Shown here: positions 3,476 through 57,439 of the stretch, piece after piece
Position numbering within the stretch: position 1 is the stretch's first letter
Layout: each line of letters starts with the position of its first letter
NCBI GenBank assembly: GCA_028286585.1
Contig: JAQBRI010000009.1
Span: forward strand, 28,010 to 92,009
DNA from: Candidatus Kaiserbacteria bacterium
Lineage (GTDB): Bacteria; Patescibacteriota; Minisyncoccia; Phycocordibacterales; UBA2100
DNA: 64,000 nucleotides
Reading direction: 5' to 3'
The notes under the pieces: generated by a model
Databases searched by the model: none
The model's input: the letters and a program-made list of their open reading frames with translations, nothing else
Told to the model about the DNA's origin: nothing
Made by a program: the position numbers and the translations under genes

Positions 3476-3535
3476 TAGACGCGTCATACAGAATGCGCTA
3501 GTATCAAAAGAGGAACTGTAAAGTGGAGTATATTC

Positions 3536-3931: not shown

Positions 3932-3937
3932 CTTACA

Positions 3938-3959: not shown

Positions 3960-3990
3960 GACTGTATTTCGAAATTACAAATGTAATACT

Positions 3991-4020: not shown

Positions 4021-4065
4021 ATAATTACTTATAACAAGTTTTATTAGTTTCTAAATAATGTTTTT

Positions 4066-4608: not shown

Positions 4609-4610
4609 TC

Positions 4611-5360: not shown

Positions 5361-5365
5361 GTATC

Positions 5366-6148: not shown

Positions 6149-6158
6149 CTCTACAAAT

Positions 6159-6482: not shown

Positions 6483-6484
6483 GG

Positions 6485-6997: not shown

Positions 6998-6999
6998 AT

Positions 7000-7707: not shown

Positions 7708-7764
7708 AGTTTGGGCAAGTTTGCATAGTATATCATTTTGAAAATCTTACGATATAATTGCCTA

Positions 7765-36618: not shown

Positions 36619-38118
36619 TTAGCCCTCAGAATCAACATCTTTGATTGTTTGGTCGATATAGGTCTGTGCATGTATCAGACGTTCCTGCACCTTTTTTATA
36701 TATGCAGCATCCTCTGGAGCAAGCGTAGTCGCAGCATTACTCTTTTCGAGATCATTCTTTTGCTGTTCCAGTCCCTGTTTAATATTCAAGAGCTTTTCGT
36801 GCGTATCATTTTTAACTTTTTTTACTTCTTCGCTCATGTCTTTGCTGCGTAGTTTTTCGGAGCGACGTAAACGATTCCAGAGGACGAAGTTCATCAACAA
36901 GGAGAGAAGCGAGAGGAGTAATGCTGCCGGTAGTTCGAGTGATCCGTAATTAAATGTCCGAACTTGATCGAAGAAATTCGACTGTGCCGTATGCGCTATC
37001 GGCACCACAAAAGATAATTGATCGGAATCTGCGTAATTACCCGCATTATCAAACACTCGAAGGACTGCGGTATGCGTGCCGACCGACGATGTAACTGGAA
37101 TTCGGACAAAACCGCTTGCAAACTGTGCCTGAGATAATGTGTCAGTTGTCGTACCATCAATCAGCACCTGGTAGGTATTGATACCAGCATATGCATCCTC
37201 TGCGCTTGCCTGAATAAAGAGCGCACTACTTGTTGCATCATACGTAATGAGGGAATTAAGTACTGGAGCAGATGTGTCGATTTGGAGACGATATGACTTG
37301 ACACTACTCCAGCCGGCAGGCGTATGTGCACGAATATTAAAATACCAAACACCATCATTCACTGGATCAAATGTTTTTATTGAAATAGGCGAGTGATACA
37401 CCGCGGTTGGAATTTTACCGCTAGTTTGACTTAATTCTGCCTGCACTGAATCGATGTCACTTGAGACGGTCCATGATATTGCTGGAGACGCATTTGCATA
37501 CCAAACGCTTTCAGATGGATGCGTTGGTGATGAAATATCAATTGTTGTCGTCTCAGCTGCTGGCTTTACTGTACTTTTGACCGGTAGAACCGTTGGCTTA
37601 ACAACAGGAGAAGCAGGCGCCTTGGTTGCTGCTTCAGAAATACTAATGGTCGAGCTTTGTGATGAGCGAAGCACGTCGGTACCAAGACCATCGTTTGCGC
37701 GGACAGCACCGCCCACAACTGACACCGCAGCGCTACCGGCAGATTTTGCACGCAGCGTGACATTGAAAAGCCGTCCGTTTGTACCCTGATAACCCGGTGA
37801 TGGCACGCCGCCGTTAAACGTCACGCCGCCGTTACCGTCGGATGCTGGAGCGTCAATCCAAAGCGTGAACAAAGAAACATCTTTATTTATTGAAACAAGA
37901 TCGAACTTATCTCGTGGATATATAAGTGTGCCTTCTCCGCTATTTATTGCAACTCCTTCGCTATTAACGACAATACCCAAAGTCACAGTTGAACCAATAG
38001 TGATCGAACTTGCGCTAGGGACTATTGAGAGAATCGCAGCATACGACTGTGATGTACCGAGTACAGATAGTAGCAATACAAAAAATAAAATGCGTCCTGA
38101 AATATTAAAGCGTTGCAT
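36619..38118 (-). CDS. membrane-anchored cohesin-like domain protein (long form, cytoplasmic coiled-coil tail)
   Basis: The ORF extends to 38154; the likely start is ATG 38118 (MQRFNISGRILFFVLLLSVLGTSQSYA looks like a signal peptide). The cohesin-like module is 'ILSIVPSASSITIGSTVTLGIVVNSEGVAINSGEGTLIYPRDKFDLVSINKDVSLFTLWIDAP...GGVTFNGGVPSPGYQGTNGRLFNVTLRAKSAGSAAVSVVGGAVRANDG'. After it come a Pro/Thr linker, two Ig-like modules, a TM helix ('LELPAALLLSLLSLLMNFVLW') and an ~95-aa K/E-rich tail. It overlaps the upstream gene by 14 nt. Confidence 0.65.
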   Translation of the reverse strand: MQRFNISGRILFFVLLLSVLGTSQSYAAILSIVPSASSITIGSTVTLGIVVNSEGVAINSGEGTLIYPRDKFDLVSINKDVSLFTLWIDAPASDGNGGVTFNGGVPSPGYQGTNGRLFNVTLRAKSAGSAAVSVVGGAVRANDGLGTDVLRSSQSSTISISEAATKAPASPVVKPTVLPVKSTVKPAAETTTIDISSPTHPSESVWYANASPAISWTVSSDIDSVQAELSQTSGKIPTAVYHSPISIKTFDPVNDGVWYFNIRAHTPAGWSSVKSYRLQIDTSAPVLNSLITYDATSSALFIQASAEDAYAGINTYQVLIDGTTTDTLSQAQFASGFVRIPVTSSVGTHTAVLRVFDNAGNYADSDQLSFVVPIAHTAQSNFFDQVRTFNYGSLELPAALLLSLLSLLMNFVLWNRLRRSEKLRSKDMSEEVKKVKNDTHEKLLNIKQGLEQQKNDLEKSNAATTLAPEDAAYIKKVQERLIHAQTYIDQTIKDVDSEG

Positions 38119-38974
38119 ATTTTTTGCGGCGATATTGTAGCCAGATAAAAACAATCACCAACAAAATGAGTATAACACCTCCAATCAATACAAATTGCGT
38201 AGAAGATTGGGGAGAATATATTATTTTTACAACACTGTTTCCCGCGACATCAGTGGCGCGTACTCGTAACTCCGACATTCGTGTCTGATCAAGGAGCACG
38301 TAGTAACGGTCTGCGCGCACATACTCGTTTGAACCTTCTTGCACTTCATAGTACGCAATACCGCTACCACTATCTTGTGCAAAAAACGTCAGGAAATACT
38401 GATTGTTAAATAATGAAGGATCACGTCCTACTTCCACCGTAACAAACTCAGGTGGTGTCGTATCACTGAGTACGGACGATGTTGCGGTCGTGCTACTTTC
38501 AATACTAATACTTTGTGTAAATGGTTGTACTGCTACAGGTGTTCCTGAGCCATTGTCACTATATGCAACAACTTTGTTTGCAGAAAGTGTAATGTTTCCA
38601 GACGCCGCAACATGAGCAGTAAACGAAAAAAGAATTTTATCTTGATGAGCGGCAATACCTGTCTGCACACCTCCCAAAAAGTCGATAGTATGCGTATTAA
38701 CAACAAAATGCGGTGTGTCCGGCCACAGTGTCATAACAGACCCTCCGGTAGTTACAGAGTCAACTGATACATTCTGCGGAATCGAAAGAGAGCCTTCTAT
38801 TGCATTGATTGCATCATTATCGGTCGCAATATGAACCTCCGCTGTAAATTTCTGTCCGATGGCAGGAACTGATGGATTGAGCATTACCGTGAGATGCGCA
38901 GCATACGCGCTTGTTGGCAGCCGAAAGCTTAAGAATAAAAGAGCGAGAAATAGAGAGGTTAGATATTTTTTCAT
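38105..38974 (-). CDS. membrane-anchored cohesin-like domain protein (short form)
   Basis: 289 aa with a signal peptide (MKKYLTSLFLALLFLSFRLPTSAYA). The cohesin-like module is 'LTVMLNPSVPAIGQKFTAEVHIATDNDAINAIEGSLSIPQNVSVDSVTTGGSVMTLWPDTP...IDFLGGVQTGIAAHQDKILFSFTAHVAASGNITL'. After it come an Ig-like module and a C-terminal TM ('FVLIGGVILILLVIVFIWLQYRRKK'). It starts 18 nt after the giant gene's stop. Confidence 0.65.
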   Translation of the reverse strand: MKKYLTSLFLALLFLSFRLPTSAYAAHLTVMLNPSVPAIGQKFTAEVHIATDNDAINAIEGSLSIPQNVSVDSVTTGGSVMTLWPDTPHFVVNTHTIDFLGGVQTGIAAHQDKILFSFTAHVAASGNITLSANKVVAYSDNGSGTPVAVQPFTQSISIESSTTATSSVLSDTTPPEFVTVEVGRDPSLFNNQYFLTFFAQDSGSGIAYYEVQEGSNEYVRADRYYVLLDQTRMSELRVRATDVAGNSVVKIIYSPQSSTQFVLIGGVILILLVIVFIWLQYRRKKYATL

Positions 38975-38992
38975 AGTGATAGTAAGTCGGAA

Positions 38993-41900
38993 TTATTTCT
39001 TCCAATGATACAGCAATATTGAGAAGTCGACTGAATCTACCTTTCCGTCGTGATTGAGGTCGACTTTATTATTTTTAAAAGGTGGCTTCGTCTTCCAATA
39101 TGCGAGAAGTATTGAGAAATCGATTCCATTCACTTTTCCATCTCCGTTGATATCGCCAATCACTTCAGTTGTAGCTGCTGGGGTAGCCACAGGTGGAGAA
39201 TTATCTCCTCCGCCTCCCCCACCTCCTCCACCTCCGCCACCGCCACCTCCATTACCTGGGTTTTGTACGGGAGCAGCAATTGCAGTAAATGACTGACTTG
39301 CACTTGATGATGCTGATCCATATTGTACTGCTACATGGAACCAATACGTTCCAATAACGGGAACAGTTGAAGAAAGTGTTGTATCAAAGTTCGCACCAGG
39401 CTGAATCAGTTTTGCTGCAGTTGAACTAAAAATATCATCACCACCTCCACAAGAATTGGTTGCAGAGTCGGTAACACACCACGTGTATTGATATTCGTAT
39501 GCTATAGAACCTTCGTTTGTTATACGCACTGCTGTGGCAATGCTTGGTACCGTCAATCCACTAAAACTCTGGATCAGAACTTGTGCTGGCGCTCCCGGTG
39601 TTGCACTCACAGGAATTGTTGTCGTGCCTCGTCCAACAAGATTTTTTGCTGATATACGGAAATCATATGAATTATTGTTGGATAGACTAGTTACCATGGT
39701 TGTTGGTGTCGTACTAATACCGTCAGAAAATATAGACCATGTTCCGCCCGAAGAAAGTTTGTATTCAACTACGTAATCAGTCACAGGTGAACCACCGTTT
39801 GATATTGGCGCCGACCATGAAAGGTTGATACTGCTGTCTTGTACAATTGCGGCGAGGTTTATTGGGGCACCGGGCACACTTGCTGGCGTCGCAGCATTAC
39901 TTGTACCGGAGCTGGTACTCGTGCCAACTGCGTTTGTTGCAGTGACAGTAAATGTGTATGTTGTTCCGTTTGTGAGGCCTTGTATAGTAGCTGAAGTTCC
40001 ATTTGTTGTAGTACTAAATACTCCACCATTTGAAGTGACGGTATAGCTTGTTATAGGAGATCCTCCATTAAAACCGGGCGCAGACCACGTAAGATTTACA
40101 CTACTGTCTGCAATTGCTGCAGCAAGATTTGTTGGCGCGTCAGGAACTGTAGCTGGGGTGACCGAATTCGTTGCGGCTGATGAAATACTTGTTCCAATTG
40201 CGTTGGTTGCCGTCACTGTAAACGTGTAGGCTGTTCCGTTTGTTAAACCAGTTACCGTTATTGGTGAACTTCCGCCAGTTGCGGTGAAGTTGCCGATATT
40301 TGAAGTAACGGTATAAGACGTAATTGCAGAGCCACCGGTAAATGATGGTGGGCTAAATGTAATAGTCGCAGTACCGTCACCGCCAACTGCCGCTACGCTC
40401 GTTGGTGCACTTGGCCCACCTGCAGGTACAACCGAATTACTTGTTCCAGAACTAGTACTTGTTCCAACATTGTTTGTTGCAGTTACTGTAAAGGTGTACG
40501 TTGTTCCATTCACGAGTCCAGTAATAGTGATCGGTGAACTTCCACCTGTTGCAGTAAATCCTCCTGTATTTGATGACACGGTGTAGTTAGTTATTGCAGC
40601 ACCGCCGTTACTAACGGGCGGTGTAAAGGAAACAGTTGCTTGGCCGTTTCCAGCAACTGCAGAAATCGAAGTGGGTGCATCAGGTACTGTGGCAGGAGTA
40701 ACGGAGTTACTTGTACCCGATGAAGTACTCGTTCCAATACTATTTGTTGCAGTGACAGTAAATGTGTATGTCGTGCCATTTGTGAGACCAGTAATTGTAA
40801 TTGGTGAAGAGCCACCTGTTGCCGTAAATCCTCCTGTATTTGATGACACGGTATAGTTTGTTATTGCAGCGCCGCCGTTACTTACAGGCGGAGTAAATGT
40901 AATTGTTGCTTGGCCGTTACCACCAACGGCAGAAATACCAGTCGGAGAATTAGGAACAGTTCCTGGTATTACTGAATTACTTGCGGATGATGCGGTACTT
41001 GTTCCTGCAGCATTCGTAGCAGTGACTGTAAATGTGTACGTAGTTCCGTTGGTAAGACCGGTCACAGTGATCGGAGAAGAACCACCTGTTGCGGTAAGGC
41101 CGCCACTACTTGATGTGACAGTGTAACTCGTAACGGCAGCTCCTCCATTATTTACTGGTGGAGTAAATGTAATTGTTGCCTGACCATTACCGCTAACTGC
41201 GGTCACGCTTGTCGGCGCGTTTGGCGTCGTCGCGGGAACAACGGTGTTACTTGTGCCCGATGGCGTACTGGTTCCAACTGCATTTGTGGCAGTCACAGTA
41301 AATGTGTAGGTTGTTCCATTTGTAAGACCGGTAATTGTAATTGGTGAAGATCCGCCGCTCGCGGTGAAGCCGCCGGTGTTTGATGACACGGTGTAGTTAG
41401 TTATTGCAGAACCGTTGTTACTTCCCGGTGTAAAGGAAACCGTAGCTTGACCATTACCGCTTACTGCCGTGACAGCAGTAGGTGCATTAGGAACAGTAAC
41501 AGGAGTAACTGAGTTACTTGCGGACGACGCAGTACTGGTTCCAACATTGTTTGATGCTGTTACGGTAAATGTGTAGGTTGTACCGTTAGTAAGGCCAGTA
41601 ATTGTAATTGGGGAGCCGCCGCCTGTTGCAGTAAAGCCGCCGGTGTTTGATGACACGGTGTAGTTAGTTATTGCAGATCCCCCGTTACTGACTGGCGGAG
41701 TAAATGTGATTGTTGCTTGGCCGTTTCCAGCAACTGCAGAAACGCTTGTTGGGGCACCCGGTGCAGTCGCAGGTGTCACAGAATTGCTTAGTGTCGAGGA
41801 GGTACTTGTGCCAACGCCATTAGTTGCAGTAACGGTAAATGTGTATGCGGTGCCATTGGTAAGACCGGTCACAGTGATTGGTGAGCCACTTCCGCTTGCT

Positions 41901-44900
41901 GTAAACCCGCCTGAGTTTGATGTCACCGTGTACGTTGTGATTGCAGCACCACCGTTACTAACAGGCGGAGTAAATGTAATTGTTGCTTGGCCGTTACCTG
42001 CTGTAGCGACTGCTCCCGTAGGTGCATTTGGAACAGTTGCTGGTGTCACAGAATTGCTTAGTGTCGAGGAGGTACTTGTGCCAACGCCATTAGTTGCAGT
42101 AACGGTAAATGTGTATGCGGTGCCATTGGTAAGACCGGTCACAGTAAGTGGAGAACTGATACCAGTGACATTAAAGCCGCCAATGTTTGATGTGACCGTG
42201 TAGTTTGTAATCGCAGAACCGTTGTTACTTCCTGGTGTAAAGGTAATTGTTGCCTGACCATTTCCACCAACTGCAGTAACGCTTGTTGGAGCACTCGGGA
42301 CACCTGCCGGCGTGATTGAATTGCTTATTCCCGAAGATGTACTTGTTCCTGCAGAATTATTTGCAGTTACAGTAAACGCATAGACTACTCCGTTTGAGAG
42401 ACCGGTCACTGTGATTGGTGAAGAACCACCTGTTGCAGTAAAGCCTCCAACATTTGAAGTAACAGTGTACGTTGTGATTGCAGCACCGCCATTACTTACG
42501 GGTGGAGTAAACGAAATTGTTGCCTGCGTATCCCCTCGCACTGCTGTCACACTTGTCGGAGCATCTGGAATTGTTGCTGGAGTGACCGATGCGCTCGCAC
42601 TCGAACTAGCACTCGTTCCAACTGAGTTAGTAGCAGTTACTGTAAATGTATATGCCGTTCCGTTTGTTAAACCAGTTACCGTGATTGGTGAAGATCCGCC
42701 GGTTGCAGTAAAGCCACCTGTGTTTGAAGACACTGTATATGTTGTGATTGCAGCGCCACCGTTACTTACAGGCGGAGTAAAGGTTACGGTCACTTCTCCA
42801 TTGCCTCTCGTGACGGTTCCTATTGTCGGCGCGTTCGGAGTAGTAGCAGGAACAACCGTGTTACTCGTTGCCGATGCGGTACTTGTTCCTGCTGAGTTAG
42901 TTCCCGTTACGGTAAAGGTGTACGTTGTTCCATTTGTGAGACCAGTAATTGTAATTGGCGAAGATCCGCCGGTTGCAGTAAAGCCACCTGTGTTTGATGA
43001 GACCGTGTACGTTGTGATTGCAGATCCCCCATTACTTACAGGTGGTGTAAAGGAAACAGTTGCTTGACCATTTCCAGCGACTGCAGAAACGCTAGTTGGG
43101 GCACCCGGTGCAGTCGCCGGAGTTATTGTATTACTGGTGCCAGAATTTGTACTCGTACCGATTGCGTTTGTTTCGGTGACAGTAAATGTGTATGCCGTTC
43201 CGTTTGTTAAACCTGTTACAGTTATTGGTGAAGAGCCACCAGTTGCAGTGAAGCCGCCGGTGTTTGATGAGACTGTATAGATCGAAATACTTGAACCATT
43301 GTTATTGCCAGGTGTAAACGAAATTGTTGCTTGGCCATTTCCGGCAACTGCGGTTACGCTTGTTGGAGCACTCGGGACTCCCGCAGGTGTGATAGCATTA
43401 CTCGTACCAGAGGCGGTACTTGTTCCCGCCGAGTTAGTAGCAGTTACTGTAAAAGTATAAATCGTACCGTTGGTAAGACCGGTTATTGTAATCGGTGAAG
43501 ATCCACCAGTTGCTGTGAGGCCTCCCACATTTGATGAGACTGTGTATGTTGTTACAGCAGAGCCGCCGTTATTCACTGGCGGAGTAAACGATATGGTAGC
43601 CTGCGTGTCGCCGCGAACTGCGCTAACACTTGTCGGCGCGTCCGGTACTGTAGCTGGTGTCACCGAACTACTAGCACTCGAACTTGCGCTCGTTCCAACC
43701 GCATTTGTTGCGGTTACTGTAAACGTGTACGCTGTGCCATTCGTTAGACCTATTAGTGTTATTGGTGAAGAGCCGCCAGATGTTGTAAAGCCGCCTGTGT
43801 TTGATGAGACGGTGTAAAGAGTAATTGGTGAACCGCCTGTATTTCCTGGTGTAAAAGAAATGGTTACCTGCCCATTACCCGCCGTCCCTATTACACTAGT
43901 AGGTGCATCAGGAATTGTCGCCGGTGTCGCAGAATTTGTTGCGTTCGAGGCCGTACTCGTACCAACTGAGTTAGTAGCAGTTACTGTAAATGTGTATGCC
44001 GTTCCGTTTGTTAAACCTGTTACAGTTATTGGTGAACTACCACCTGTTGCAGTGAATCCTCCTGTGTTTGATGTAACGGTGTAGCCAGTTATTGCAGAAC
44101 CTCCGTTACTTACGGGTGGTGTAAATGTAATTGTTGCCTGAGTGTTACCACGTGTCGCGGTTCCTATAGTTGGTGCGTCTGGCACAGTTGCAGGAACCAC
44201 ACTATTACTTGTACTTGATGGAGTACTCGTTCCCAACGCACTACTTGCCGTCACTGTAAACGTGTACGTTGTTCCGTTCACAAGTCCAGTTATTGTAATT
44301 GGTGAAGAGCCACCTGTTGCAGTGAATCCCCCAGTGTTTGATGAGACCGTGTACGTTGTGATTGCAGATCCCCCATTACTTACTGGTGGTGTAAACGTAA
44401 TTGTTGCTTGGCCATTACCGCCGGTTGCAGTGACACTAGTTGGGGCACCCGGTGCAGTCGCCGGTATCACACTGTTACTAGCAATTGACGCAGTGCTTGT
44501 ACCAACGGCGTTCGTTGCCGTAACTGTAAACGAATAGGAAATTCCATTGGTAAGGCCGGTCACAACAATTGGTGAGCCACTTCCCGTTCCAGTAAAGCCG
44601 CCAACGTTTGAAGTAACCGTGTACGTTGTGATAGCAGAGCCGCCGTTATTCACTGGCGGAGTAAACGATACAGTAGCTTGAGTATCACCGCGAACTGCAC
44701 TCACGCCGGTTGGCGCACCTGGCACTGTTGCAGGAACAACACTATTACTCGTTCCCGAAGGAGAGCTTGTACCAGCGGAATTAGTAGCAGTTACCGTGAA
44801 TGTGTACGTTGTGCCATTAACAAGTCCGGTAATCGTAATCGGAGAACTTCCGCCGGTTGCGGTAAAACCGCCGGTGTTTGAAGACACTGTATATGTTGTG

Positions 44901-50900: not shown

Positions 50901-53900
50901 CCGCCGCCGGTACCTCCAGTTCCTGCTACTCCGCCTGCATGCCCTCCTGTTCCCAATGTTCCGTCTCCGCCATTTCCACCTGCGCCTCCCGTTCCGCCAC
51001 TTCTTCCGCTTGCGGTAAGACTACCAATAACGATGTCATTAATAAGGACTCCTGAGTTATCGCCAACAAGTCCACCGATGTATTCGGCACCGCCAACTCC
51101 ACCGATACCTCCGGTCCCTCCCGTTGCACCGGTGCCTCCGGCAATATTTCCCGAAGCACCAGCGGCACCTCCCGCTCCCGCGCCACCCGCGGCTCCTCCC
51201 ACAACACTAATAGAAGTAATTGTGTATGTTACGTCTCGAATGATTCCAGTATTGAAACCCATGATGCCTCCGCCCGCAGCAAGTCCGCCGGTACCACCGG
51301 CACCTCCTGCGCCGCCCGCTCCACCAATTGCTCCGGCTGTACTGCCGCCGGCACCACCCACTCCACCTGTGACGCCAGTACCTCCGGCACCTCCCGTTGA
51401 AGAAATAGTTCCAGTAGTATTTGGAAGACTGATTGTTGTTCCTAGGACACTATCGTTACCAATCACTCCTCCTGCGTATGACGCACCACCGACTCCTCCT
51501 GCACCTGATGTAATTCCCGCAGCTCCTGCAACACCAGCGCCCGATGTTCCAGGAGTTCCGGCAAGTCCACCATTTCCCGCAGCTCCGCCAAGAGCAACAG
51601 CATTGCCCGCAGCATATGAATCAGGACTTACGACCGCTGCATTAAATCCAACAAGGCCGCCCGCAGCGGCAAGTCCTCCGGCTTCGCCACTCAATCCGGC
51701 GACACCTCCCGTTGTACCAGCCGATCCGCCGGCAAACGCACCCGAAGAATTTCCTCCGTTTCCGGTTGTCGCTCCCGCCGCTCCTACTCCACCGGTTGCA
51801 AGTGCGTTACCTGATGCGTGCGAACCATTTTGAATTATTCCGTTTGTCGTATTAAAACCGACGAGTCCGCCCGCGTACGCAAGACCTGCGGCGTTTGATG
51901 CTGCAGCACTAGCCGAAGTATTTCCTCCAGCGCCGCCTGTTGTACCAGCTCCACCATTTCCTCCGCTGCCGCCGGCACCTCCCGCCCCGCCCGTCGCTGA
52001 GGCATTGCCTGTTGCGTACGAACCATTAATTACTCCACTACTATTTCCCGCGAGTCCTCCTGCGTACGCTGCCTTACCCAAAGCAACAGCAGCGCCTGCG
52101 CCGCCCGCAGCACCAGTGCCTCCGACACCTCCGTTACCACCGCTTCCAGTTACACCCGCGGTTGAAGTTGCGTTAATAGTCGCGTGTGATCCCAAAATGA
52201 CACCGCTTGTTGAATTGTTTGCGACGAGTCCGCCGGCGTATGCAAACCCGCCAAGCGAAACACTTGTTCCGCCAACTCCACCAACTCCGCCCAAAGCACC
52301 ACTTCCACCTGTGCCCCCTGCTCCACCATTTGCGCCTATTCCACTTGCTCCACCTTGTGAGATTACAGAACCGGATTCTATATATGCATTTATTATTGTC
52401 GAAGTATTCAAGCCGACGAGACCACCAGCAAACGAGTCCCCACCCGCGCCAGCAGTTCCCCCTGTTGCACCCACCGCACCAACATGTGATGACCCTCCTG
52501 CTGATCCGTTTCCAGCAACACCCGCTGCTCCACCATTTTTTCCAGTTGATCCGGTTGCAACAATACTTCCGGACGCGTATGAATTTATTATTTCGTTTAA
52601 GTTGTTACCCACGAGTCCGCCCGCGTATGCAATAGCACCAGCGCCACCGTTTCCGCCAAGTCCACCTGCTGCTGCAGTACCCGAGTTAAACGTTGCAGTT
52701 GTAGCGCCTCCCGCACCACCTGCACCAGCATTTCCTGGCGTGCCTCCTACAGATGTGACATTGCCCGTTGAGTATGAAGTGGTTCGAATGATACCGCCGT
52801 TTTGTCCGACAAGACCTCCAGCCGTACTGATACCACCCGCGCCACCGTTGCCTCCGGTCGCTCCAACTCCACCAATCGCATTTGTTCCGCCGGTGCCTCC
52901 TGCACCACCCACTCCGCCAATGCCACCAGTTCCTCCGGTTACTGTCGTGCTACCGACCGCATAACTTGTAGTGACTGTTCCCAATGAAATGATACCAACG
53001 AGTCCTCCACCAAATGCGGCACCTCCTGCACCTCCCGTTCCACCCAATGCTCCAGCTCCACCTGTTGTACTTGCTGCTCCAGTTCCACCGGCACCTCCTG
53101 CACCTCCAATTCCGCCCGTGCCTCCAAGAGAATTAACGGTGCCCGTTGCGTAGGAAGTTAAAATTTCTCCAGTCGTCAAAAATCCAACCAAGCCTCCAAC
53201 ATACGCAATACCTCCGACAGCTCCTGTTCCTCCGGTAATGCCGGCCAAACTTGTACCACCCGCGCCACCTGCTGCTGCAGCACCGCCCGCGCCTGCTGTG
53301 CCGCTCACGTTCCCTGTTGAAAAATCATTGGTCAATGTTGATCCAGTGTTGTTTCCTACAAATCCGCCCGCATACACAATACCCCCCGCTGTTGCGGTAC
53401 CCGCAGCTCCGGCAAGTGCACCGGTGCCGCCCGCACCCCCTGCTCCTGCTGCACCTCCTGCGCCCGCAACACCTGTAACTGATCCAATAGTGTAATTACT
53501 ATCAGTAATTGTGAGTGCATTATTTCCAGCAAGTCCTCCAACATACAGAATTGCACCTGCTCCTCCAATACCACCCGCAAGACCGGCGAGTCCGGTGAGT
53601 CCTGTAACTCCGTTTGCTCCGGCACCTCCTGCGCCGCCGGTTCCATTTACAATATTTTGTGCACTCGATGTTTGAATGATTCCTGTATTACTTCCCACGA
53701 GTCCGCCGGCATATGTTGAAAGCACGTTTGCAGATCCGCCGGTGCCCGATGCACCGCCCGCACCTGACGTTCCACTTGAACCTTTGGTACCGCCCGCGCC
53801 TCCCGTGCCGCCAACTCCACCCGTGCCGCCAACAACAGTCACTAATCCAGTATTTGAAAAAGATGAAATAATTATTCCCGAGTTAAGACCAACAAGTCCT

Positions 53901-56818
53901 CCCGAATATGCTGCGCCTCCTGCGCCGCCTGCTGCTCCTCCTCCGCCTGTTCCTCCTATGTGTGCAGTTCCAAGAGATGCGTCACCTCCAGTTCCACCAA
54001 CTTGTCCAACTTTTCCCGTTGACCCAGTTGCAGTAACGGCGCCTGTCGCAAAGACCGCTGTTGTCGTACCAGTAATAATACCGCCAAGGTTATTTTGTCC
54101 AACGAGTCCGCCCGCATATGCTATAGCACCTGCTCCACCTACTCCGCCTGCACCACCAGTTGCTGCAGTGAGCGTAGTTGCAACAGCAGAAGCGCCGGCA
54201 GTTGCGCCAGCCGAACCATTGCCCGGTGTTCCTCCGGTTGATTGCACGACGCCTGTTGCGTTACTGCCCGTTTGAATTATTCCCAAGTTGTTTCCGACAA
54301 GTCCTCCGACATACGAAACACCGCCGGCTCCACCTGTGCCGCCGGCGCCTCCTGCTCCACCAATTGCAGCACCGCCTCCAGCACCACCTACGCCCGCAGT
54401 GCCGGCTGCTCCGCCCAATCCGCCGGTTCCGGTTACTGTTCCTGTTGCGGTAACAGAAGTCAGGATTCCTGCATTCACCCATCCGGCAAGGCCACCAACA
54501 TAATCAATACCTCCCGCTGCTGCAAGACCAACAGCTCCGCCTGCGCCTCCAATACCTGTTCCAGCATTAGCACCTCCGGCACCACTATTTCCAGAAGCAC
54601 CTCCTGCGCCTCCCGTTCCTATAACATTTACACCACTCGTTGCAGCTGTAATATTTCCTTGTTGAGAATAACCAACGACTCCACCAACGTAGACTGTTCC
54701 TCCCAATGCTGCCGCATTCGAAACACTTGCTCCGCCCGCGCCTGCCGTAGTCGCGCCGCTCGTTGTGTTTCCGCCTGCTGCCGCATTACCTGCTGCGCCT
54801 CCTGCACCTCCTACACCTGTTACATTTCCAGAAACACTTACGTTTGAAATCGTACCAATGTTGTATCCGACCAGTCCTCCCACATACATAGTTGCTGCAG
54901 CAGTTCCTGCCGTACCGGTTCCTCCAGCAGTTGGTGTCGTACCTGCAGTTCCAGCAGTTCCAGCGGTACCGGCAACACCCGCCGTACTTGTTGCACTAAT
55001 CAACTCGCCCGAGAGAATAACGTTTTTGATAGTGTTGTTAGAAAAACCAAAAAGACCAACATAGTTGAGCGTTGTCGTACTTATAAAAAGATTACTGATG
55101 GTAAAGTTTGCACCATCAAAGATTCCACTAAAGTTGGTTGTGTTATCGCCTATCGGCACAAAGCCTGCACCCAAGTTCCATCCCGATGTTACCGTCGCAT
55201 TAATATTATTATTAAGTTTGTATGAGTTGGTAAGTCCGGTTCGAATACCCTGCAAACCATATACGTCGTACGTAATAAAAGGATCGGTACTCACGCCAAT
55301 GCCGGTATATCGTCTAAAGGTTCCCGCTGTTACCGAAAAGTTTCCCGTCGCAGCAAATGTATTGGTGCCGGGATTGTTTGCAACAAAAGTTGCGGCTGAT
55401 GATTGCACATAATTTCCCGACAAACCTCCAGCGTTCGAAATCGTAAGACTCGCATTTTGTGTAATGGTACCAGTGTAGCCGGCGATCGTGAGCGATCCAA
55501 TAGTAAAAGCAGTATCAATGTTTGATGCGTTTGATCCTGTATCAAATATCACATCGGTGTTTACATCAGGAGTAGAAGCACCGGACGCGCCGTTAGATGT
55601 TGCCGACCAGCTTCCGGTCGAGCTCCACAAAGCGCCCGAAGCACCAACCCAGTATCGTGTCGTCGGGTCGACGACATAATCAATATCAACATTTCCAATA
55701 ATCTTAAGATCAAACTCGTCGGTCGGAGTTTGAAGATTGGTCAAAAGAATACGGTACTTTCCATCATGATCAATTGCATCAAACGTGCCGACAAGTACAC
55801 CATCAAGTGTGTACACTTCTACGCGCACCGATGCACCATCGTGTGACCGAGCATACAACGTAATGTCTTTTGTATTGTCGAGCAGCTGTGCAAACGTAAC
55901 GCGCACAAACTGTCCGTCAGAAATATTTGCATACTGCTGGTCTTGCGATTGCAAGAGTGGATACACATCGCCAATTGTATTTTTGTTTGCATCAAGTTGC
56001 AGTGCCTTCGAAATATAAATAATGGTAAATGTCTGAGTCGACAAGTGCGGCACGATCCACGCAACATGATCTATGTATCCGTTACCATCGTCATCAAACG
56101 ATTGAAACTCCATAACTTGATTTGCATTGTTCTGCCAATTTATTTTTATCTGATCTTCTTGACCAACCTTAAATATTTCTGGAATAGCAGTTCGCACCGG
56201 TACGTTCAAGATTGGTGTTATTTCATTTTCAAGATCCGCGACAGATACGACAACTGTCTTGCCATTGTCGTTTGTGTGTTCGGTGATCGTAGGCACCTGC
56301 ACCAGAATCGGTAACGCAAGATCCGAAGTCGATGCAGTATTTTGTGAATTTAAAAAAGTATCAGTCGACGTTGCTGTCAAAATTGCAGCACCACCTGAAC
56401 TAGTAAAAATATTTTGCACAGAACTCGATGCGCTGGTGTTATCAGAAATTATTTCTGTCGAAGATGCTTGAGTAAATGAAGTATCAGTTGAAGTTGCAAT
56501 ACTACTGCTCGCATTAATTACTTCACTTTGTAAACTATCGGTAGAAGTCGTTGCGGGGGGCTGTATTTTAGCATCACCCGAATCCTGTGAAACTTGGCTT
56601 CCCTGCCCAACCTGGTCGTCGGAGCTGGTAGCGACTGGCGCAGGAGTAGTCGCATCCTCTGTTGAAGTTACGATTACAGTATTTGTATCAGTGACAATTG
56701 GCGTTGCATCATCAGCATGCGTCGATACAACGTTTCCAAATAATATTCCAAGTACAAAAAAAACCCCTACAACAATTTGTAGCGGTAATCGGAATATTCT
56801 AAAAAATGGCTCAATCAC
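38993..56818 (-). CDS. giant (5,941 aa) secreted/surface fibre protein: signal-anchor, S/T-rich stalk, beta-helix-like head, ~50 GLUG-like Gly/Ala-rich repeats, 21 FN3 repeats, Ig-like module, poly-Gly linker, C-terminal dockerin-like module
   Basis: A single uninterrupted 17,826-nt ORF with a GTG start at 56818, the only start-type codon that retains the hydrophobic N-terminus 'FRLPLQIVVGVFFVLGILFGNVVSTHA'. The domain layout was read from the translation (see the sub-features). Confidence 0.9.
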   Translation of the reverse strand: MIEPFFRIFRLPLQIVVGVFFVLGILFGNVVSTHADDATPIVTDTNTVIVTSTEDATTPAPVATSSDDQVGQGSQVSQDSGDAKIQPPATTSTDSLQSEVINASSSIATSTDTSFTQASSTEIISDNTSASSSVQNIFTSSGGAAILTATSTDTFLNSQNTASTSDLALPILVQVPTITEHTNDNGKTVVVSVADLENEITPILNVPVRTAIPEIFKVGQEDQIKINWQNNANQVMEFQSFDDDGNGYIDHVAWIVPHLSTQTFTIIYISKALQLDANKNTIGDVYPLLQSQDQQYANISDGQFVRVTFAQLLDNTKDITLYARSHDGASVRVEVYTLDGVLVGTFDAIDHDGKYRILLTNLQTPTDEFDLKIIGNVDIDYVVDPTTRYWVGASGALWSSTGSWSATSNGASGASTPDVNTDVIFDTGSNASNIDTAFTIGSLTIAGYTGTITQNASLTISNAGGLSGNYVQSSAATFVANNPGTNTFAATGNFSVTAGTFRRYTGIGVSTDPFITYDVYGLQGIRTGLTNSYKLNNNINATVTSGWNLGAGFVPIGDNTTNFSGIFDGANFTISNLFISTTTLNYVGLFGFSNNTIKNVILSGELISATSTAGVAGTAGTAGTAGTTPTAGGTGTAGTAAATMYVGGLVGYNIGTISNVSVSGNVTGVGGAGGAAGNAAAGGNTTSGATTAGAGGASVSNAAALGGTVYVGGVVGYSQQGNITAATSGVNVIGTGGAGGASGNSGAGGANAGTGIGGAGGAVGLAAAGGIDYVGGLAGWVNAGILTSVTATGTVTGTGGLGGAAGTAGVGGAGGGAAIGGAGGAGGTGGAGGVSYVGGLVGNNLGIIQTGSNATGVVQSTGGTPGNGSAGATAGASAVATTLTAATGGAGGVGGAGAIAYAGGLVGQNNLGGIITGTTTAVFATGAVTATGSTGKVGQVGGTGGDASLGTAHIGGTGGGGAAGGAGGAAYSGGLVGLNSGIIISSFSNTGLVTVVGGTGGVGGTGGAGGTKGSSGTSGAGGASGTGGSANVLSTYAGGLVGSNTGIIQTSSAQNIVNGTGGAGGAGANGVTGLTGLAGLAGGIGGAGAILYVGGLAGNNALTITDSNYTIGSVTGVAGAGGAAGAGGAGGTGALAGAAGTATAGGIVYAGGFVGNNTGSTLTNDFSTGNVSGTAGAGGAAAAGGAGGTSLAGITGGTGAVGGIAYVGGLVGFLTTGEILTSYATGTVNSLGGTGGIGGAGGAGGTGAASTTGGAGALGGTGGAGGAAFGGGLVGIISLGTVTTSYAVGSTTVTGGTGGIGGVGGAGGTGGTNAIGGVGATGGNGGAGGISTAGGLVGQNGGIIRTTSYSTGNVTSVGGTPGNAGAGGAGGATTATFNSGTAAAGGLGGNGGAGAIAYAGGLVGNNLNEIINSYASGSIVATGSTGKNGGAAGVAGNGSAGGSSHVGAVGATGGTAGAGGDSFAGGLVGLNTSTIINAYIESGSVISQGGASGIGANGGAGGTGGSGALGGVGGVGGTSVSLGGFAYAGGLVANNSTSGVILGSHATINATSTAGVTGSGGNGGVGGTGAAGGAGAAVALGKAAYAGGLAGNSSGVINGSYATGNASATGGAGGAGGSGGNGGAGTTGGAGGNTSASAAASNAAGLAYAGGLVGFNTTNGIIQNGSHASGNALATGGVGAAGATTGNGGNSSGAFAGGSAGTTGGVAGLSGEAGGLAAAGGLVGFNAAVVSPDSYAAGNAVALGGAAGNGGLAGTPGTSGAGVAGAAGITSGAGGVGGASYAGGVIGNDSVLGTTISLPNTTGTISSTGGAGGTGVTGGVGGAGGSTAGAIGGAGGAGGAGGTGGLAAGGGIMGFNTGIIRDVTYTITSISVVGGAAGGAGAGGAAGASGNIAGGTGATGGTGGIGGVGGAEYIGGLVGDNSGVLINDIVIGSLTASGRSGGTGGAGGNGGDGTLGTGGHAGGVAGTGGTGGGGGVVYIGGLAGQGNGNIASSSSSGGTITVTLGGSGGVGGTGGTGGAGGSGSGRNGTGGTGGAGGVAGPIYSGGAIGLNSLADVIIESLSSSDDVTITEGSGGAGGAAVAGTNGAVGGTGGAGGGGGALNFGAYAGGLEGFNSGTGQSINNSRASGNITVTGGAGGAGAVGGAGGSGVTNSITGGAGAVGGIGGAGGFANGGGLLGFTNTNVFIGNSFTSGNVTVLAGVGGAAGNGGAGGAGGTASAGGAGATGGAAGLGGASYAGGLVAAAAASGGNIATSSSTGIIRGTSGAGGASGSGGAGGAGGSASLGGAGGNGAVGGGGGVNYTGGLVGDSPTTIQSSFHTTGAVSAFSGAGGAAGAGGTAGASGNISAGTAAAGGAGASGGVAGAVNVGGLVGRNNTVAGIINNSYATSDVNATGGSGGAGGVGGAGGDGTLATNHLGGTGGVGGAGGAGGGLVAGALQAGGLVGQNFVGTITNSYSQTGTVTVTGSAGGASAQGGAGGVGTGTALYGIAGAGGAGGAGGGVYVGGLVGYSIGVIQTSYSKTALNVTGGAGQNGTAGRSGAAGGGAAGSAGGAGGASSLIHVGGLVGNNASEIIASYASVDAGSGKGNISVAGGAMGNGANGGAGGSGLAAGSAGGAGGVGGVGGAGGGTFVGGLAGFNSAAGIITTSYSDTIAISGTEQTAGTGGIGGAGGTGVGAFAGGTGTAGGAGGAGSARSYGGLVGDNLGTIQNNSYSSISFSVTGGTGGTGGVGGAGGTSGSTIASGIAAAGGAGGAGGAGGVTYGGGLVGRINATTQTLQILNSYATGNATVTGGTGGTGGAGGVGGDGSTGTVTHAGSAGALGGSAGIGGDGNAGGLVGYTNVTSGIVNYSFDYATGNASSTGGNAGTAGTSGNGGASRTTVAGGAGGGAVLAAAGGSGFAGGLIGLNFVTTGGQSDIVNSYATGAVSATGGIGSTGNTGGVGANGAASSVGGAGGAGGIGGAGGDGNAGGLAGFTGATTGANNVLTSYATGNIVTSTSGTGGNGGSAGASGTSGSAAVGAATGGGGTSGAGGAAYAGGLVGRTSATASNNLIITSSYSTDNVIANGGTSGNGAAGVIGGAGGSGSIGGTGGLGGATGVGGAAYAGGLVAFNFGTIQGNSYATGNATSTSGTAGTPGAGAAGGASGSVSGSTAASGGAGGAGGAGGAAYVGGLIAHNTAIGVVLNSFALGSVVSIAKNGATGATGGAGGDGSLGTSAHVGGTGGTGGAGGIGGASYSGGLIGNNVNALNTIATSYAIGASVTGTSGVGGSGGTGGIGGLPGAAGVGGAGGAGGAAVSGGVLYTGGLIGFNDGTVLSGSYASTTVLGSAGAGGVGGTGGAGVAGGIATAANGATGGAGGSAGAAGVGGIAYAGGFNGYNNTGRTIKDSYANSSVTVTGGAGGVGGLGGNGAAGGAGIVAGTGGTGGIAGARTAGGVGGIAYGGGFVGQNNGGTISTSYGTGAVNVNGSAGGVGGAGGVGGNGGAGGPTGAGGIGGAMGATAAGGAGGAAYAGGLVGQNASGSTVLSSWSSGNVSLVGGAGASAGLSGTVSTGGAGGTLAGGAGGASVAGGNGGAGGASFAGGLMGADLATGTFNTSYSSGNVSITGGNGGNGAVGGKGGNGGVGGSGGSGNGGAGATGGTGGTGGVGGDVTGGGLVGQNTGVITNTYARGNVTITAGTPGTGAIGGAGGNAGAAGGGVAGVNGTGATGGAGGAGGNAYAGGLFGSNNAVITNTYATGVPTGTKTSGATGGTGGAAGTGGTGGAAGASGATGAAALQYVGGIVGNPIGGSYVSDYWDNVTSGKSNGVGNGADPAGMTGTTTTALKTQATYTNWDFVSPVWAITPGTTYAYLNYQTVPNAPTSVTAVPGNGQATITFAPPVNSGGSPITNYTVSSNTGGFTATGGSSPITITGLTNGTTYTFTVTATNASGTSISSGTSNAVTPATAPGAPTIGTATRGNGQATITFTPPVSNGGTAITTYTVSSNTGGFTATGGSSPITITGLVNGTTYTFTVTATNSAGTSSPSGTSNSVVPATVPGAPTGVSAVRGDTQATVSFTPPVNNGGSAITTYTVTSNVGGFTGTGSGSPIVVTGLTNGISYSFTVTATNAVGTSTASIASNSVIPATAPGAPTSVTATGGNGQATITFTPPVSNGGSAITTYTVSSNTGGFTATGGSSPITITGLVNGTTYTFTVTASSALGTSTPSSTSNSVVPATVPDAPTIGTATRGNTQATITFTPPVSNGGSAITGYTVTSNTGGFTATGGSSPITVTGLTNGTAYTFTVTATNSVGTSTASNATNSATPATIPDAPTSVIGTAGNGQVTISFTPGNTGGSPITLYTVSSNTGGFTTSGGSSPITLIGLTNGTAYTFTVTATNAVGTSASSSASSSVTPATVPDAPTSVSAVRGDTQATISFTPPVNNGGSAVTTYTVSSNVGGLTATGGSSPITITGLTNGTIYTFTVTATNSAGTSTASGTSNAITPAGVPSAPTSVTAVAGNGQATISFTPGNNNGSSISIYTVSSNTGGFTATGGSSPITVTGLTNGTAYTFTVTETNAIGTSTNSGTSNTITPATAPGAPTSVSAVAGNGQATVSFTPPVSNGGSAITTYTVSSNTGGFTATGGSSPITITGLTNGTTYTFTVTGTNSAGTSTASATSNTVVPATTPNAPTIGTVTRGNGEVTVTFTPPVSNGGAAITTYTVSSNTGGFTATGGSSPITVTGLTNGTAYTFTVTATNSVGTSASSSASASVTPATIPDAPTSVTAVRGDTQATISFTPPVSNGGAAITTYTVTSNVGGFTATGGSSPITVTGLSNGVVYAFTVTANNSAGTSTSSGISNSITPAGVPSAPTSVTAVGGNGQATITFTPGSNNGSAITNYTVTSNIGGFNVTGISSPLTVTGLTNGTAYTFTVTATNGVGTSTSSTLSNSVTPATVPNAPTGAVATAGNGQATITFTPPVSNGGAAITTYTVTSNSGGFTASGSGSPITVTGLTNGTAYTFTVTATNGVGTSTSSTLSNSVTPATAPGAPTSVSAVAGNGQATITFTPPVSNGGSAITNYTVSSNTGGFTATGGGSPITITGLTNGTTYTFTVTASNNVGTSTASSASNSVTPVTVPNAPTAVTAVSGNGQATVSFTPGSNNGSAITNYTVSSNTGGFTASGGSSPITITGLTNGTTYTFTVTATNAVGTSTPSGTSNTVVPATTPNAPTSVTAVSGNGQATITFTPPVNNGGAAVTSYTVTSSSGGLTATGGSSPITVTGLTNGTTYTFTVTATNAAGTSTASSASNSVIPGTVPNSPTGISAVGGNGQATITFTPPVSNGGAAITNYTVSSNTGGFTATGGSSPITITGLTNGTTYTFTVTATNSIGTSTSSGTSNSVTPATVPDAPTSISAVAGNGQATVSFTPPVSNGGAAITNYTVSSNTGGFTATGGSSPITITGLVNGTTYTFTVTATNNVGTSTSSGTSNSVVPAGGPSAPTSVAAVGGDGTATITFSPPSFTGGSAITSYTVTSNIGNFTATGGSSPITVTGLTNGTAYTFTVTATNAIGTSISSAATNSVTPATVPDAPTNLAAAIADSSVNLTWSAPGFNGGSPITSYTVTSNGGVFSTTTNGTSATIQGLTNGTTYTFTVTATNAVGTSTSSGTSNAATPASVPGAPINLAAIVQDSSINLSWSAPISNGGSPVTDYVVEYKLSSGGTWSIFSDGISTTPTTMVTSLSNNNSYDFRISAKNLVGRGTTTIPVSATPGAPAQVLIQSFSGLTVPSIATAVRITNEGSIAYEYQYTWCVTDSATNSCGGGDDIFSSTAAKLIQPGANFDTTLSSTVPVIGTYWFHVAVQYGSASSSASQSFTAIAAPVQNPGNGGGGGGGGGGGGGGGDNSPPVATPAATTEVIGDINGDGKVNGIDFSILLAYWKTKPPFKNNKVDLNHDGKVDSVDFSILLYHWKK
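38996..39160 (-). other. dockerin-like module (two F-hand Ca-binding segments) at the C-terminus of the giant protein
   Basis: 'GDINGDGKVNGIDFSILLAYW' and 'VDLNHDGKVDSVDFSILLYHW' each fit D-x-N-x-D-G-x-[VI]-[ND]-x-x-D followed by an amphipathic helix, the duplicated dockerin signature. Confidence 0.7.
39206..39250 (-). repeat. 15-residue poly-glycine linker coding tract
   Basis: The + strand reads tcc tcc gcc tcc ccc acc tcc tcc acc tcc gcc acc gcc acc tcc, which is 15 consecutive Gly codons (GGA/GGC/GGG/GGT mixed) on the minus strand. The context is P-G-N-G15-D-N-S-P. Confidence 0.95.
39590..45265 (-). repeat. array of 21 tandem FN3-like repeats (~90 aa / 270 nt each)
   Basis: Counted from the translation. 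The consensus is 'P[GDN]APT.V.A..GNGQATI.FTPP..NGG.AIT.YTV.SNTGGFTATGGSSPIT[IV]TGL.NGT.YTFTVTATN..GTS..S..SN.V.PA'. The last two or three units are more divergent ('LSWSAP...YDFRISAKN'). Confidence 0.9.
41772..42145 (-). repeat. 104-nt perfect direct repeat pair (41772-41875 and 42042-42145), exactly one FN3 unit (270 nt) apart
   Basis: Checked base by base: ggtgtcacagaattgcttagtgtcgaggaggtacttgtgccaacgccattagttgcagtaacggtaaatgtgtatgcggtgccattggtaagaccggtcacagt occurs twice. Confidence 0.95.
45440..55066 (-). repeat. array of ~49-50 GLUG-motif-like repeats (~65 aa) with Gly/Ala-rich spacers
   Basis: I counted recurring units of the form '[AVS]Y[VA]GGLVG.N.G.I..SY[AS]TG.V...GG.GG' followed by spacers such as 'AGGAGGTGGAGG'. 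The first is 'NYVGLFGFSNNTIKN' and the last is 'QYVGGIVGNPIGGSYVSDYW'. Confidence 0.7.
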
Positions 56819-56824
56819 TGGGTA

Positions 56825-56830
56825 ATTATA
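56825..56830 (-). promoter_or_regulatory. consensus -10 hexamer TATAAT (minus strand) 6 nt upstream of the giant gene's GTG
   Basis: The minus strand reads catagTATAATtacccaGTG. There is no Shine-Dalgarno-like purine run and I found no TTGACA-like -35. Confidence 0.25.
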
Positions 56831-56953
56831 CTATGTACCCTGCCCTAGATAGGGGGTCAAATGTTGATAAGTGTATAAGTCCTAATGCACCTTCTCTACG
56901 CCTTTTTGTATTCGTTCCAAACAGTAGTTGTTGGGCTTGTCTAACTAGTCGGA

Positions 56954-57439
56954 TCAATCAACCTCCTCATTGTCGAGCGACAAATCTTTGCTGTTTTCAG
57001 AAATTTGAGCCGATGTTCGTAGGTACCCGATAAGGTCTCGAGTCGCTACATTTGCGATTAGCGGCTTCATTGCGAGCTTCATTAACTTTTCGATTCTAAA
57101 GATGCCATCTTCTCCTTTTTCGGTAAGAGCAAGTACCCGCTCACGCCGGTCTTCACCCTGAGAAACTTTTATCCATTTGTTTTTCTCCATCGAAATAATC
57201 GCTCTACTTACTAGTGATGGCTGTACTCCAAGCGCTGCTGCAACTTCGCTCGCGCGCATACTTGTGTGTGAGTGCGAAAGAATACCAAGGATGGCCCATT
57301 CCAAATTCGTAAGACCTTGCGGCTTGAGGACCTCGGCACTCACCTGCTTGAACACTCGATACCCTTTCGCCTGGATAAGACCAATGTCGTACGTTGTGTG
57401 ATCTTTAAACAAAAGTGCGATATCAGAAAATATACCCAT
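56954..57439 (-). CDS. MarR-family winged-helix transcriptional regulator
   Basis: 161 aa. 'LTNLEWAILGILSHSHTSMRASEVAAALGVQPSLVSRAIISMEKNKWIKVSQGEDRRERVLALTEKG' is the canonical MarR wHTH. It lies 135 nt upstream of the giant gene and is co-directional with it. Confidence 0.85.
   Translation of the reverse strand: MGIFSDIALLFKDHTTYDIGLIQAKGYRVFKQVSAEVLKPQGLTNLEWAILGILSHSHTSMRASEVAAALGVQPSLVSRAIISMEKNKWIKVSQGEDRRERVLALTEKGEDGIFRIEKLMKLAMKPLIANVATRDLIGYLRTSAQISENSKDLSLDNEEVD

Follow-up and report, generated by a model that had tools for sequence, protein, structure and literature searches.

A candidate cohesin-dockerin cassette for surface attachment in Candidatus Kaiserbacteria and related Patescibacteria

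The locus and its gene products

The stretch of DNA analysed here (the window) is 64 kb of contig JAQBRI010000009.1 from Candidatus Kaiserbacteria, and all coordinates are positions in it. Four co-directional open reading frames (ORFs), identified from the ORF table and their translations, lie on its minus strand and encode proteins of 161, 5,941, 289 and 511 amino acids (aa). The first is a MarR-like regulator. The other three are best read, from their sequences, as a cohesin-dockerin surface-attachment cassette, in which a non-enzymatic cargo (the 5,941-aa protein, also called the giant below) would be held by two membrane-anchored sockets, a short one of 289 aa and a long one of 511 aa. The MarR and cargo genes are separated by 135 nucleotides (nt), and the cargo and short-socket genes by 18 nt. 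The two socket genes overlap by 14 nt, provided that the long socket starts at the in-frame ATG at 38118. The arrangement and the spacings are those given in an earlier note on this DNA. Promoter, terminator and inverted-repeat scans around the MarR gene and the operon ends gave nothing above shuffle expectation, and no operator-like inverted repeat was found in the 135-nt spacer. The stop codon of the cargo gene and the ATG of the 289-aa gene share a frame, six codons apart (38975-38992), so that stop-codon read-through would join the dockerin to the socket precursor. The in-frame spacing is not general in other loci and is probably a coincidence.

The C-terminal end of the cargo consists of a beta-sandwich, a glycine hinge and a type I dockerin (Table 1), together called the handle. 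The dockerin matches Pfam Dockerin_1 (PF00404) with 46.3 bits against a gathering cutoff of 22.9 (E 4.8e-12; E 1.2e-10 when scanned in the context of a larger fragment), and no other dockerin-like motif occurs in the window. The two F-hand segments reported earlier, DINGDGKVNGIDFSILLAYW and DLNHDGKVDSVDFSILLYHW, are found in the tail behind the 15-Gly run, as described. The duplicated segment of about 22 residues reads DINGDGKVNGID followed by FSILLAYW in the first half and DLNHDGKVDSVD followed by FSILLYHW in the second. The Ca-ligand positions of both halves are intact and their helices are nearly identical. Among 28 homologues, ligand positions D1, N3, D5 and D12 and the FSI residues of the helix are invariant. 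An AlphaFold2 (AF2) model of the last 235 aa, based on a 28-sequence alignment, places the dockerin helices at 192-200 and 223-233, with a predicted local distance difference test score (pLDDT) of about 90. The dockerin consensus derived from 63 loci (introduced below) carries a conserved Cys before each F-hand (..C.GAD.. and ..NPCVD..), a pattern that suggests a disulfide clasp in the family; the dockerin of the giant has neither Cys.

The beta-sandwich in front of the hinge is 58% identical to its homologue in another of these loci, L001, and was recognised by a purpose-built hidden Markov model (HMM), called "pre", with an E value of 8e-60. In the AF2 model its strands span residues 39-141 with pLDDT above 90. 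No Pfam family matches the sandwich, and its Foldseek neighbours are MG (macroglobulin)/Ig-like sandwiches. The linker around the hinge has low pLDDT and is disordered in the model. A Gly run is kept in 70 relatives, in which the longest run has a median of 10 Gly, and it also occurs in relatives with other C-terminal tails.

The remainder of the giant is made of long repeat arrays. Its N-terminus has a hydrophobicity maximum of 2.75 at residue 13 and is followed by a unique region of about 560 aa that belongs to no Pfam family; a Pfam scan of the first 3,000 aa returned no family at E<=0.01. The repeats that follow this region consist of a GLUG motif (Y-A/V-G-G-L-V-G-x-N-x-G-x-I...) and a Gly/Ala-rich run of about 35 aa. 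When short native stretches of these repeats were scanned, Pfam Glug was matched with 31 bits against a cutoff of 20.5 (E 2.7e-7). The repeats probably form a beta-helical distal shaft. Their Gly and Ala codons account for the GC content of 55-58% as well as for the strong skew in GC between 46 and 54 kb. The fibronectin type III (FN3) array, a probable stalk, was matched by Pfam fn3 in 21 stretches (E 1.3e-175). The DNA of the FN3 array has a tandem period of 270 nt, with 17.5 copies and 69% matches. Because the copies are only 69% alike at the DNA level, collapse of the repeats in the assembly is unlikely and was rejected. With about 21 FN3 domains near the C-terminal handle and the GLUG repeats and the 560-aa region at the opposite end, the protein has the layout of a fibrillar adhesin, and the cargo may have an adhesive role.

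Both sockets are built from the same elements. The short socket has a signal peptide (residues 1-25), a cohesin module (26-159), an Ig-like module (169-252), a transmembrane (TM) helix (259-281) and a basic tail, RRKKYATL. The AF2 model of the 289-aa protein shows the N-terminal signal helix, the Ig-like module at 176-252 and a C-terminal TM helix at 259-288. In the long socket the signal peptide and the cohesin module (39-176) are followed by an extra beta domain, an Ig-like module (290-379), a TM helix at about 406-428 and a K/E-rich, helical cytoplasmic tail of 85 aa. The architecture described previously (signal peptide, beta module of about 135 aa, Ig-like module or modules, one TM helix) is thus reproduced, with a tail of 85 aa instead of about 95. 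Both sockets have a signal peptide, a tail that follows the positive-inside rule and a cohesin module predicted to be extracellular. These topology elements, like the domain identities in the three proteins, are shown by the analysis.

The N-terminal modules of the sockets can be assigned to the cohesins, an assignment supported by transitive homology, a family profile and a fold search. The two proteins belong to one family, in which 6 of 16 aligned members match PF00963 (best E 2.9e-7). Searches of both proteins against the PDB by phmmer gave nothing useful. A profile of the N-terminal-module family matched the Ruminococcus flavefaciens cohesins 5m2o (E 4e-5), 5aoz (6e-5) and 5m2s (6e-3), in agreement with the cohesin-like label given in the earlier note. 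The module has the nine-stranded jelly-roll beta-sandwich fold of cohesins, and its top fold matches are non-cellulosomal cohesins from Clostridium perfringens glycoside hydrolases and from Archaeoglobus fulgidus. The long socket matches the family cohesin HMM with E 8e-41, the Ig HMM with E 1e-16 and Pfam Big_13 with E 8.5e-7.

The sockets appear to be held by their TM helices. Ahead of the TM helix, none of 73 short family members has a sortase or LPXTG-like motif, the NCBIfam LPXTG_anchor model reached only E 0.41 on the window sockets, and the Pfam scans of both socket proteins gave no SLH match. Sortase anchoring of the short socket was therefore rejected, since the motif is absent from the 73 members and the proteins end in a TM helix with a basic tail. 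The sockets also fall outside the class of wall-anchored anchoring scaffoldins, because they lack SLH and LPXTG elements and about 85 aa follow the TM helix of the long socket. The proposal that they are anchored by neither SLH domains nor sortase thus stands.

Table 1. Features of the cassette and the adjoining MarR-like gene
Feature	Positions	Strand	Basis and remarks
MarR-like gene	56954-57439	-	161 aa; Pfam MarR + HTH_27; neighbour only
Cargo gene, putative secreted fibre	38993-56818	-	5,941 aa, GTG start; ORF and translation
Predicted N-terminal signal peptide or anchor, residues 1-35	56714-56818	-	basic n-region, hydrophobic core, ...STHA|DD
About 49 GLUG/Gly-rich repeats of about 65 aa, residues ~645-3790	45449-54886	-	repeat map and Pfam Glug
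FN3 array, about 21-23 domains, residues ~3862-5743	39590-45235	-	Pfam fn3
Pre-dockerin beta-sandwich, residues 5744-5849	39272-39589	-	RITNEGS..YEYQYTWC..SCGGGDD; HMM, AF2
Gly hinge, residues 5857-5871	39206-39250	-	run of exactly 15 Gly
Type I dockerin, residues 5886-5941	38996-39163	-	Pfam Dockerin_1; two F-hand loops, each with a DFSILL helix
Short socket	38105-38974	-	289 aa
Long socket	36619-38154	-	511 aa from TTG; probable ATG start 38118 (MQRF...)

Linkage of cargo and socket genes in other Patescibacteria

The handle alignment (sandwich, hinge and dockerin) recruited 80 loci from species-representative genomes, all of them Patescibacteria-type metagenome-assembled genomes (MAGs). They are labelled Paceibacteria/Parcubacteria, Wolfebacteria, Zambryskiibacteria, Nomurabacteria and Gracilibacteria, and many third-party-annotation MAGs are labelled Saccharibacteria. 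The cohesin and Ig modules, the dockerin and the pre-dockerin sandwich were searched for in mechanically called ORFs by means of small HMMs. A cohesin gene starts within 200 nt downstream of the cargo in 67 of the 68 loci whose cargo has both sandwich and dockerin, and 61 of the 68 have two cohesin genes. Among the 12 loci in which the cargo has the sandwich and the Gly hinge and lacks the dockerin, only one has a cohesin gene at this position (Fisher test, p 1.4e-11, for loci that are phylogenetically non-independent). The pairing of cargo and cohesin-TM genes that the earlier note had proposed to look for in relatives is thus found.

The cargo is usually followed by the short gene (about 196-316 aa) and then by the long gene (about 470-600 aa), with gaps mostly of -25 to +20 nt. 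Upon clustering of the neighbouring genes, only three positions were conserved: the cargo at position 0 (71/74), a cohesin gene at +1 (72/74) and a second cohesin gene at +2 (67/72). The conserved unit is a dockerin cargo, a short cohesin anchor and a long cohesin anchor with a cytoplasmic helical tail, and its tight linkage is a matter of direct observation. Seven relatives of the 289-aa protein (P0003, P0004, P0005, P0006, P0009, P0010 and P0016) are each encoded between a dockerin-ended ORF, immediately upstream, and a second cohesin gene on the downstream side. The survey from the cohesin side includes cargos that lack the sandwich (L006, L009, L091 and L092).

Of 1.84 billion representatives of 50%-identity clusters, the cohesin-Ig-TM family accounts for 16,382 at E<=1e-3 and for 4,709 at E<=1e-30. 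With thousands of such clusters, the system is not rare. The three-gene cassette, which is found in dozens of related genomes, is probably a general and previously undescribed means by which Patescibacteria attach proteins to their surface.

Several observations weigh against this interpretation. Pfam and NCBIfam scans of both window sockets gave no Cohesin match at E<=1, so that of the four profiles named in the earlier note Dockerin_1, Glug and fn3 matched directly and Cohesin matched at the level of the family (the 6 of 16 members given above). Since the pre-module served to recruit all 80 loci, which are also related to one another, the counts overstate their independence. The earlier note had held that cohesin and dockerin genes should not occur apart in relatives. 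This is borne out by the 67 loci, with exceptions: an orphan branch of cohesin-TM genes (P0011 and P0012) has no dockerin within 10 kb, the dockerin cargo of L085 has no downstream cohesin gene, and the cargo of L063 has no dockerin and yet a cohesin gene downstream. In a mirror-tree comparison of 63 paired loci the dockerin-cohesin correlation was 0.56 for the short and 0.38 for the long socket. The corresponding values for the pre-module and the cohesins were 0.60 and 0.46. Since the dockerin-cohesin correlation is no higher than that of the pre-module, the mirror tree adds nothing specific. Finally, the hydrophobic core at the N-terminus of the giant is long (about 20 residues) and might serve as a second anchor.

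Some of these observations would also fit an arrangement in which the linked proteins are not partners. The cohesin folds would then bind a glycan, wall or host ligand, the dockerin would bind elsewhere or provide Ca-dependent stability, and the genes would be neighbours through co-regulation as envelope proteins. The cohesin fold is a generic beta-sandwich whose next structural neighbours include adhesin and macroglobulin-type domains, the window proteins fall below the Pfam Cohesin threshold, and orphan cohesin-TM genes exist. It is this explanation that the coupled presence and absence of dockerin and cohesin genes strains most, and we regard it as very improbable.

The proposed docking of the dockerin on the adjacent cohesins agrees with the diversity of the cargo tails. 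The dockerin-less relatives have as their tail either two SH3_3 domains (E 1.5e-19) or a domain of about 230 aa. The latter consists of 3-4 repeats of about 65 aa (GTLIxDGxTxYLIxxGQRxGFRxxEEYxSYGYxF...) without a Pfam match. It follows the Gly hinge in L066, L067, L068, L070, L071, L073 and L076 and may, from its sequence, be an undescribed wall- or surface-binding repeat. SH3b domains bind the cell wall in other bacteria. Because the tails vary on a shared sandwich and hinge, the position behind the hinge is a swappable C-terminal slot. The cohesin genes accompany only the dockerin version of the cargo (67/68 against 1/12), and the slot would be the one used for anchoring. Relatives with the same sandwich and hinge and other tails thus provide an evolutionary argument for which part anchors. 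In L063 the cargo (3-6710) ends in two SH3_3 domains and a long cohesin gene is present at 6758-8329; this locus may represent a recent swap of the anchoring module.

The part of the cargo in front of the handle varies with the lineage from nearly nothing to several thousand residues. The lengths of complete relative cargos lie between 304 and 2,283 aa, and cargos truncated at the 5' end reach more than 3,600 aa. Most often, homologues of the handle are proteins of about 325-340 aa that combine FN3, sandwich and dockerin; their sources give them no name beyond "fibronectin type III domain-containing" or "dockerin type I domain-containing". The giant of the window is one extreme of a variable cargo on a common handle, and its size, presented in the earlier note as a defining feature, is not one: cargos of about 330 aa are common. 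Among the mid-size cargos, those of L029, L031, L032, L034, L037, L038, L046, L050-L052, L056, L060, L065, L083 and L089, many of 700-2,300 aa share the conserved mature N-terminus YQRAxLGETIxLGEFVYDDDYxATTT.... Small cargos of about 340 aa share another N-terminus, GTIxPxxxYAFGExLGWINFxCDNCNVHV. The two shared N-termini are distinct, unannotated head modules on the same handle.

Upstream of the cargo, a polytopic membrane protein of about 244 aa and a protein of about 213 aa of no known kind are each encoded in 17 loci. Neither occurs near the cassette of the window. By eye the membrane protein is a candidate TatC-like protein, and the recurrence of the two genes is probably due to lineage synteny.

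Proposed attachment and the role of two sockets

The cargo would be exported by the Sec pathway, whereupon its N-terminal signal peptide would be cleaved. At its C-terminal handle the conserved beta-sandwich is connected to the type I dockerin by the flexible poly-Gly hinge, which would act as a free joint. The dockerin would plug, in a Ca-dependent manner, into the cohesin module of either or both bitopic membrane proteins whose genes lie immediately downstream. After cleavage the cargo would be held at its C-terminus by the dockerin alone, with the FN3 stalk proximal to the cell and the GLUG/Gly-rich shaft and the variable N-terminal region pointing outward as the interacting end. Judging from sequence and gene order, it is likely that the dockerin binds at least one of the adjacent cohesins and that this binding anchors the cargo on the cell. 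The binding, its stoichiometry and the orientation of the cargo are inferred in the same way. The tether proposed in the earlier note is retained in this scheme, whereas the role of MarR, the giant size and the wall-poor cell that went with it are not.

Most relative cargos with a complete N-terminus have a classical cleavable signal peptide of the AXA type, for example ...SEAFA|EYQR. The signal peptide of the giant is predicted to be cleaved too. Of the two arrangements considered earlier, release from the N-terminus with retention by the dockerin only is favoured by these relatives, and holding of the cargo at both ends less so.

A non-covalent tether, on a cargo with a cleavable-type signal peptide and no other anchor, might also act in trans. 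Released cargo would then dock on the sockets of other cells, either siblings or a host-associated partner, and lead to aggregation or exchange. Docking across species is conceivable because the key residues of dockerin and cohesin are highly conserved across species (mean pairwise dockerin distance 0.36). The tight operon-like coupling of the genes, with overlaps and short gaps, is however what one would expect of subunits assembled within the producing cell, and docking in trans is considered quite unlikely.

The cytoplasmic tail has a median length of 5 aa in short sockets and of 75 aa in long ones. Many short sockets lack even the Ig spacer, so that the sockets differ in height. Two sockets probably allow attachment at two heights, or connect to a partner in the cytoplasm. 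They could be alternative anchors, act as a pair, or bind with both faces of the dockerin used at once. In L024 (1085-3538) a single ORF of 818 aa has the order cohesin-Ig-cohesin-Ig-TM, an apparent fusion of a short and a long socket that is either natural or the result of a sequencing frameshift. If real, this fusion argues for two sockets acting together.

One form of such joint action would be a clamp. Both dockerin helices read DFSILL, and a dockerin of this symmetry might engage the two cohesins, short and long, simultaneously. The resulting ternary two-socket complex would couple the extracellular fibre, by way of the TM helix of the long socket, to the conserved helical tail in the cytoplasm and serve as a mechanical or signalling link specific to Patescibacteria. 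This elaboration is unlikely; if true, different cargos would be exchangeable on one conserved receptor pair.

The long socket could alternatively be a TM signalling receptor with the dockerin protein as its ligand, in which case the tail would relay occupancy or tension and anchoring would be secondary. Its K/E-rich tail, of the median length given above, is conserved, with a recognisable consensus in 57 sequences, and sequence divergence is lower among long sockets than among short ones (mean distance 0.52 against 0.69). In the window the locus also adjoins the MarR gene. However, Pfam and NCBIfam scans recognised no signalling domain in the tail, the linkage to MarR is not conserved across loci, and the loci always encode a short socket as well, with a tail of about 5 residues. 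A sensor or mechanotransducer of this kind is as improbable, in our estimate, as docking in trans.

The MarR protein itself is well identified, with HTH_27, MarR_2 and MarR all above the Pfam cutoffs. Neighbour clustering and phmmer searches across all loci show that it is a singleton among about 75 loci; L001 alone has another MarR gene, which is unrelated and on the opposite strand. MarR was accordingly rejected as a component of the system, its linkage to the cassette not being conserved, and the part assigned to it in the earlier note falls away.

Relation to known systems and neighbouring genes

Cohesin and dockerin modules have long been known outside cellulosomes, mostly without an assigned partner or function. 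A cellulosome at the present locus was rejected, as each socket has a single cohesin, the cargo consists of Glug, fn3 and dockerin without a catalytic or carbohydrate-binding-module family, and there is one dockerin in 64 kb. The principle is the known cellulosomal cohesin-dockerin interaction; the differences lie in the TM anchoring, the two paralogous sockets, the fixed three-gene cassette, the handle, a non-catalytic cargo whose length varies widely, and the occurrence in Patescibacteria. A description of the cassette was not found in the literature, although coverage of subscription journals was incomplete and the evidence of absence is accordingly weak.

Among the nearest functional analogues is ScaE of R. 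flavefaciens, which also holds the non-enzymatic CttA: as proposed here, a one-cohesin anchor tethers a dockerin-tailed, non-catalytic surface protein to the cell that produces it. ScaE is, however, attached covalently to peptidoglycan through LPXTG and sortase, whereas the present anchors are bitopic membrane proteins without a sortase motif. The partners of ScaE carry pairs of an X-module and a dockerin and belong to a cellulolytic organism; here no carbohydrate-active-enzyme context was seen, there are two paralogous anchors per cargo, and the dockerin is preceded by a beta-sandwich and a Gly hinge. OlpA, OlpC and SdbA of Clostridium thermocellum are likewise single-cohesin surface proteins on which type I or type II dockerins dock non-covalently. 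They differ in being SLH-anchored to the S-layer or wall and in having enzymes or a scaffoldin as cargo, and they do not form a fixed cassette of cargo and two anchors. The toxin modules of C. perfringens (2vo8, 2w1n, 2jh2, 2o4e) and the A. fulgidus cohesin (2xdh) are non-cellulosomal cohesin or dockerin modules. They belong to secreted enzyme-enzyme complexes or have no assigned function, and unlike the present system they do not combine a membrane socket with an adjacent fibre gene.

Among ultra-small uncultured bacteria, the "Dockerin-type" giants of Omnitrophota are likewise huge, repeat-rich predicted surface proteins, with dockerin-type Ca-binding repeats and a proposed role in attachment (bioRxiv 10.1101/2023.11.21.568195). 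They have many internal dockerin/EF-hand and thrombospondin repeats, a C-terminal TM segment of their own and SecA-like domains, with no described cohesin partner, whereas the present cargo has a single terminal dockerin and dedicated cohesin genes. The eukaryotic TMEM132 proteins resemble the sockets in overall layout, having an extracellular cohesin-fold domain, Ig spacers, one TM helix and a cytoplasmic tail (PMC6030884). They are an animal neural adhesion family and are not known to have a dockerin ligand. In Saccharibacteria, a transposon-sequencing (Tn-seq) study reported an essential dockerin-domain protein whose partner is not named (PMC10633639).

The cassette provides a defined set of partners, a clear topology and a testable function in Patescibacteria (also called the Candidate Phyla Radiation, CPR), in which surface biology and host attachment are little known. 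If confirmed, it would account for the way in which tiny cells carry wall-spanning fibres of widely differing size. It would also supply compact, orthogonal cohesin-dockerin pairs for protein engineering, and the conserved dockerin and sockets could serve as a handle for labelling or capturing uncultured Paceibacteria.

Three further groups of genes in the window were noted. At 33810-34454 (minus strand), 2 kb from the cassette, a 214-aa protein combines PG_binding_1 with an FN3-like domain (Pur_ac_phosph_N) and is evidence for peptidoglycan in this organism. Together with the SH3b tails of the dockerin-less cargo relatives, it speaks against the "wall-poor" cell that the earlier note had assumed. 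T2SSF and T2SSE genes at 24968-27359 and 23006-24526 (both minus strand) adjoin an LVIVD-repeat protein. From their sequences they represent the platform and ATPase of a type IV pilus or type II secretion system, a predicted second surface-appendage system in the window. A 668-aa protein encoded at 60629-62635 (minus strand) consists of a Schlafen-group-3-like helicase (E 4e-67) and a C-terminal, LexA-like Peptidase_S24 domain, and looks like a defence or stress-response fusion.

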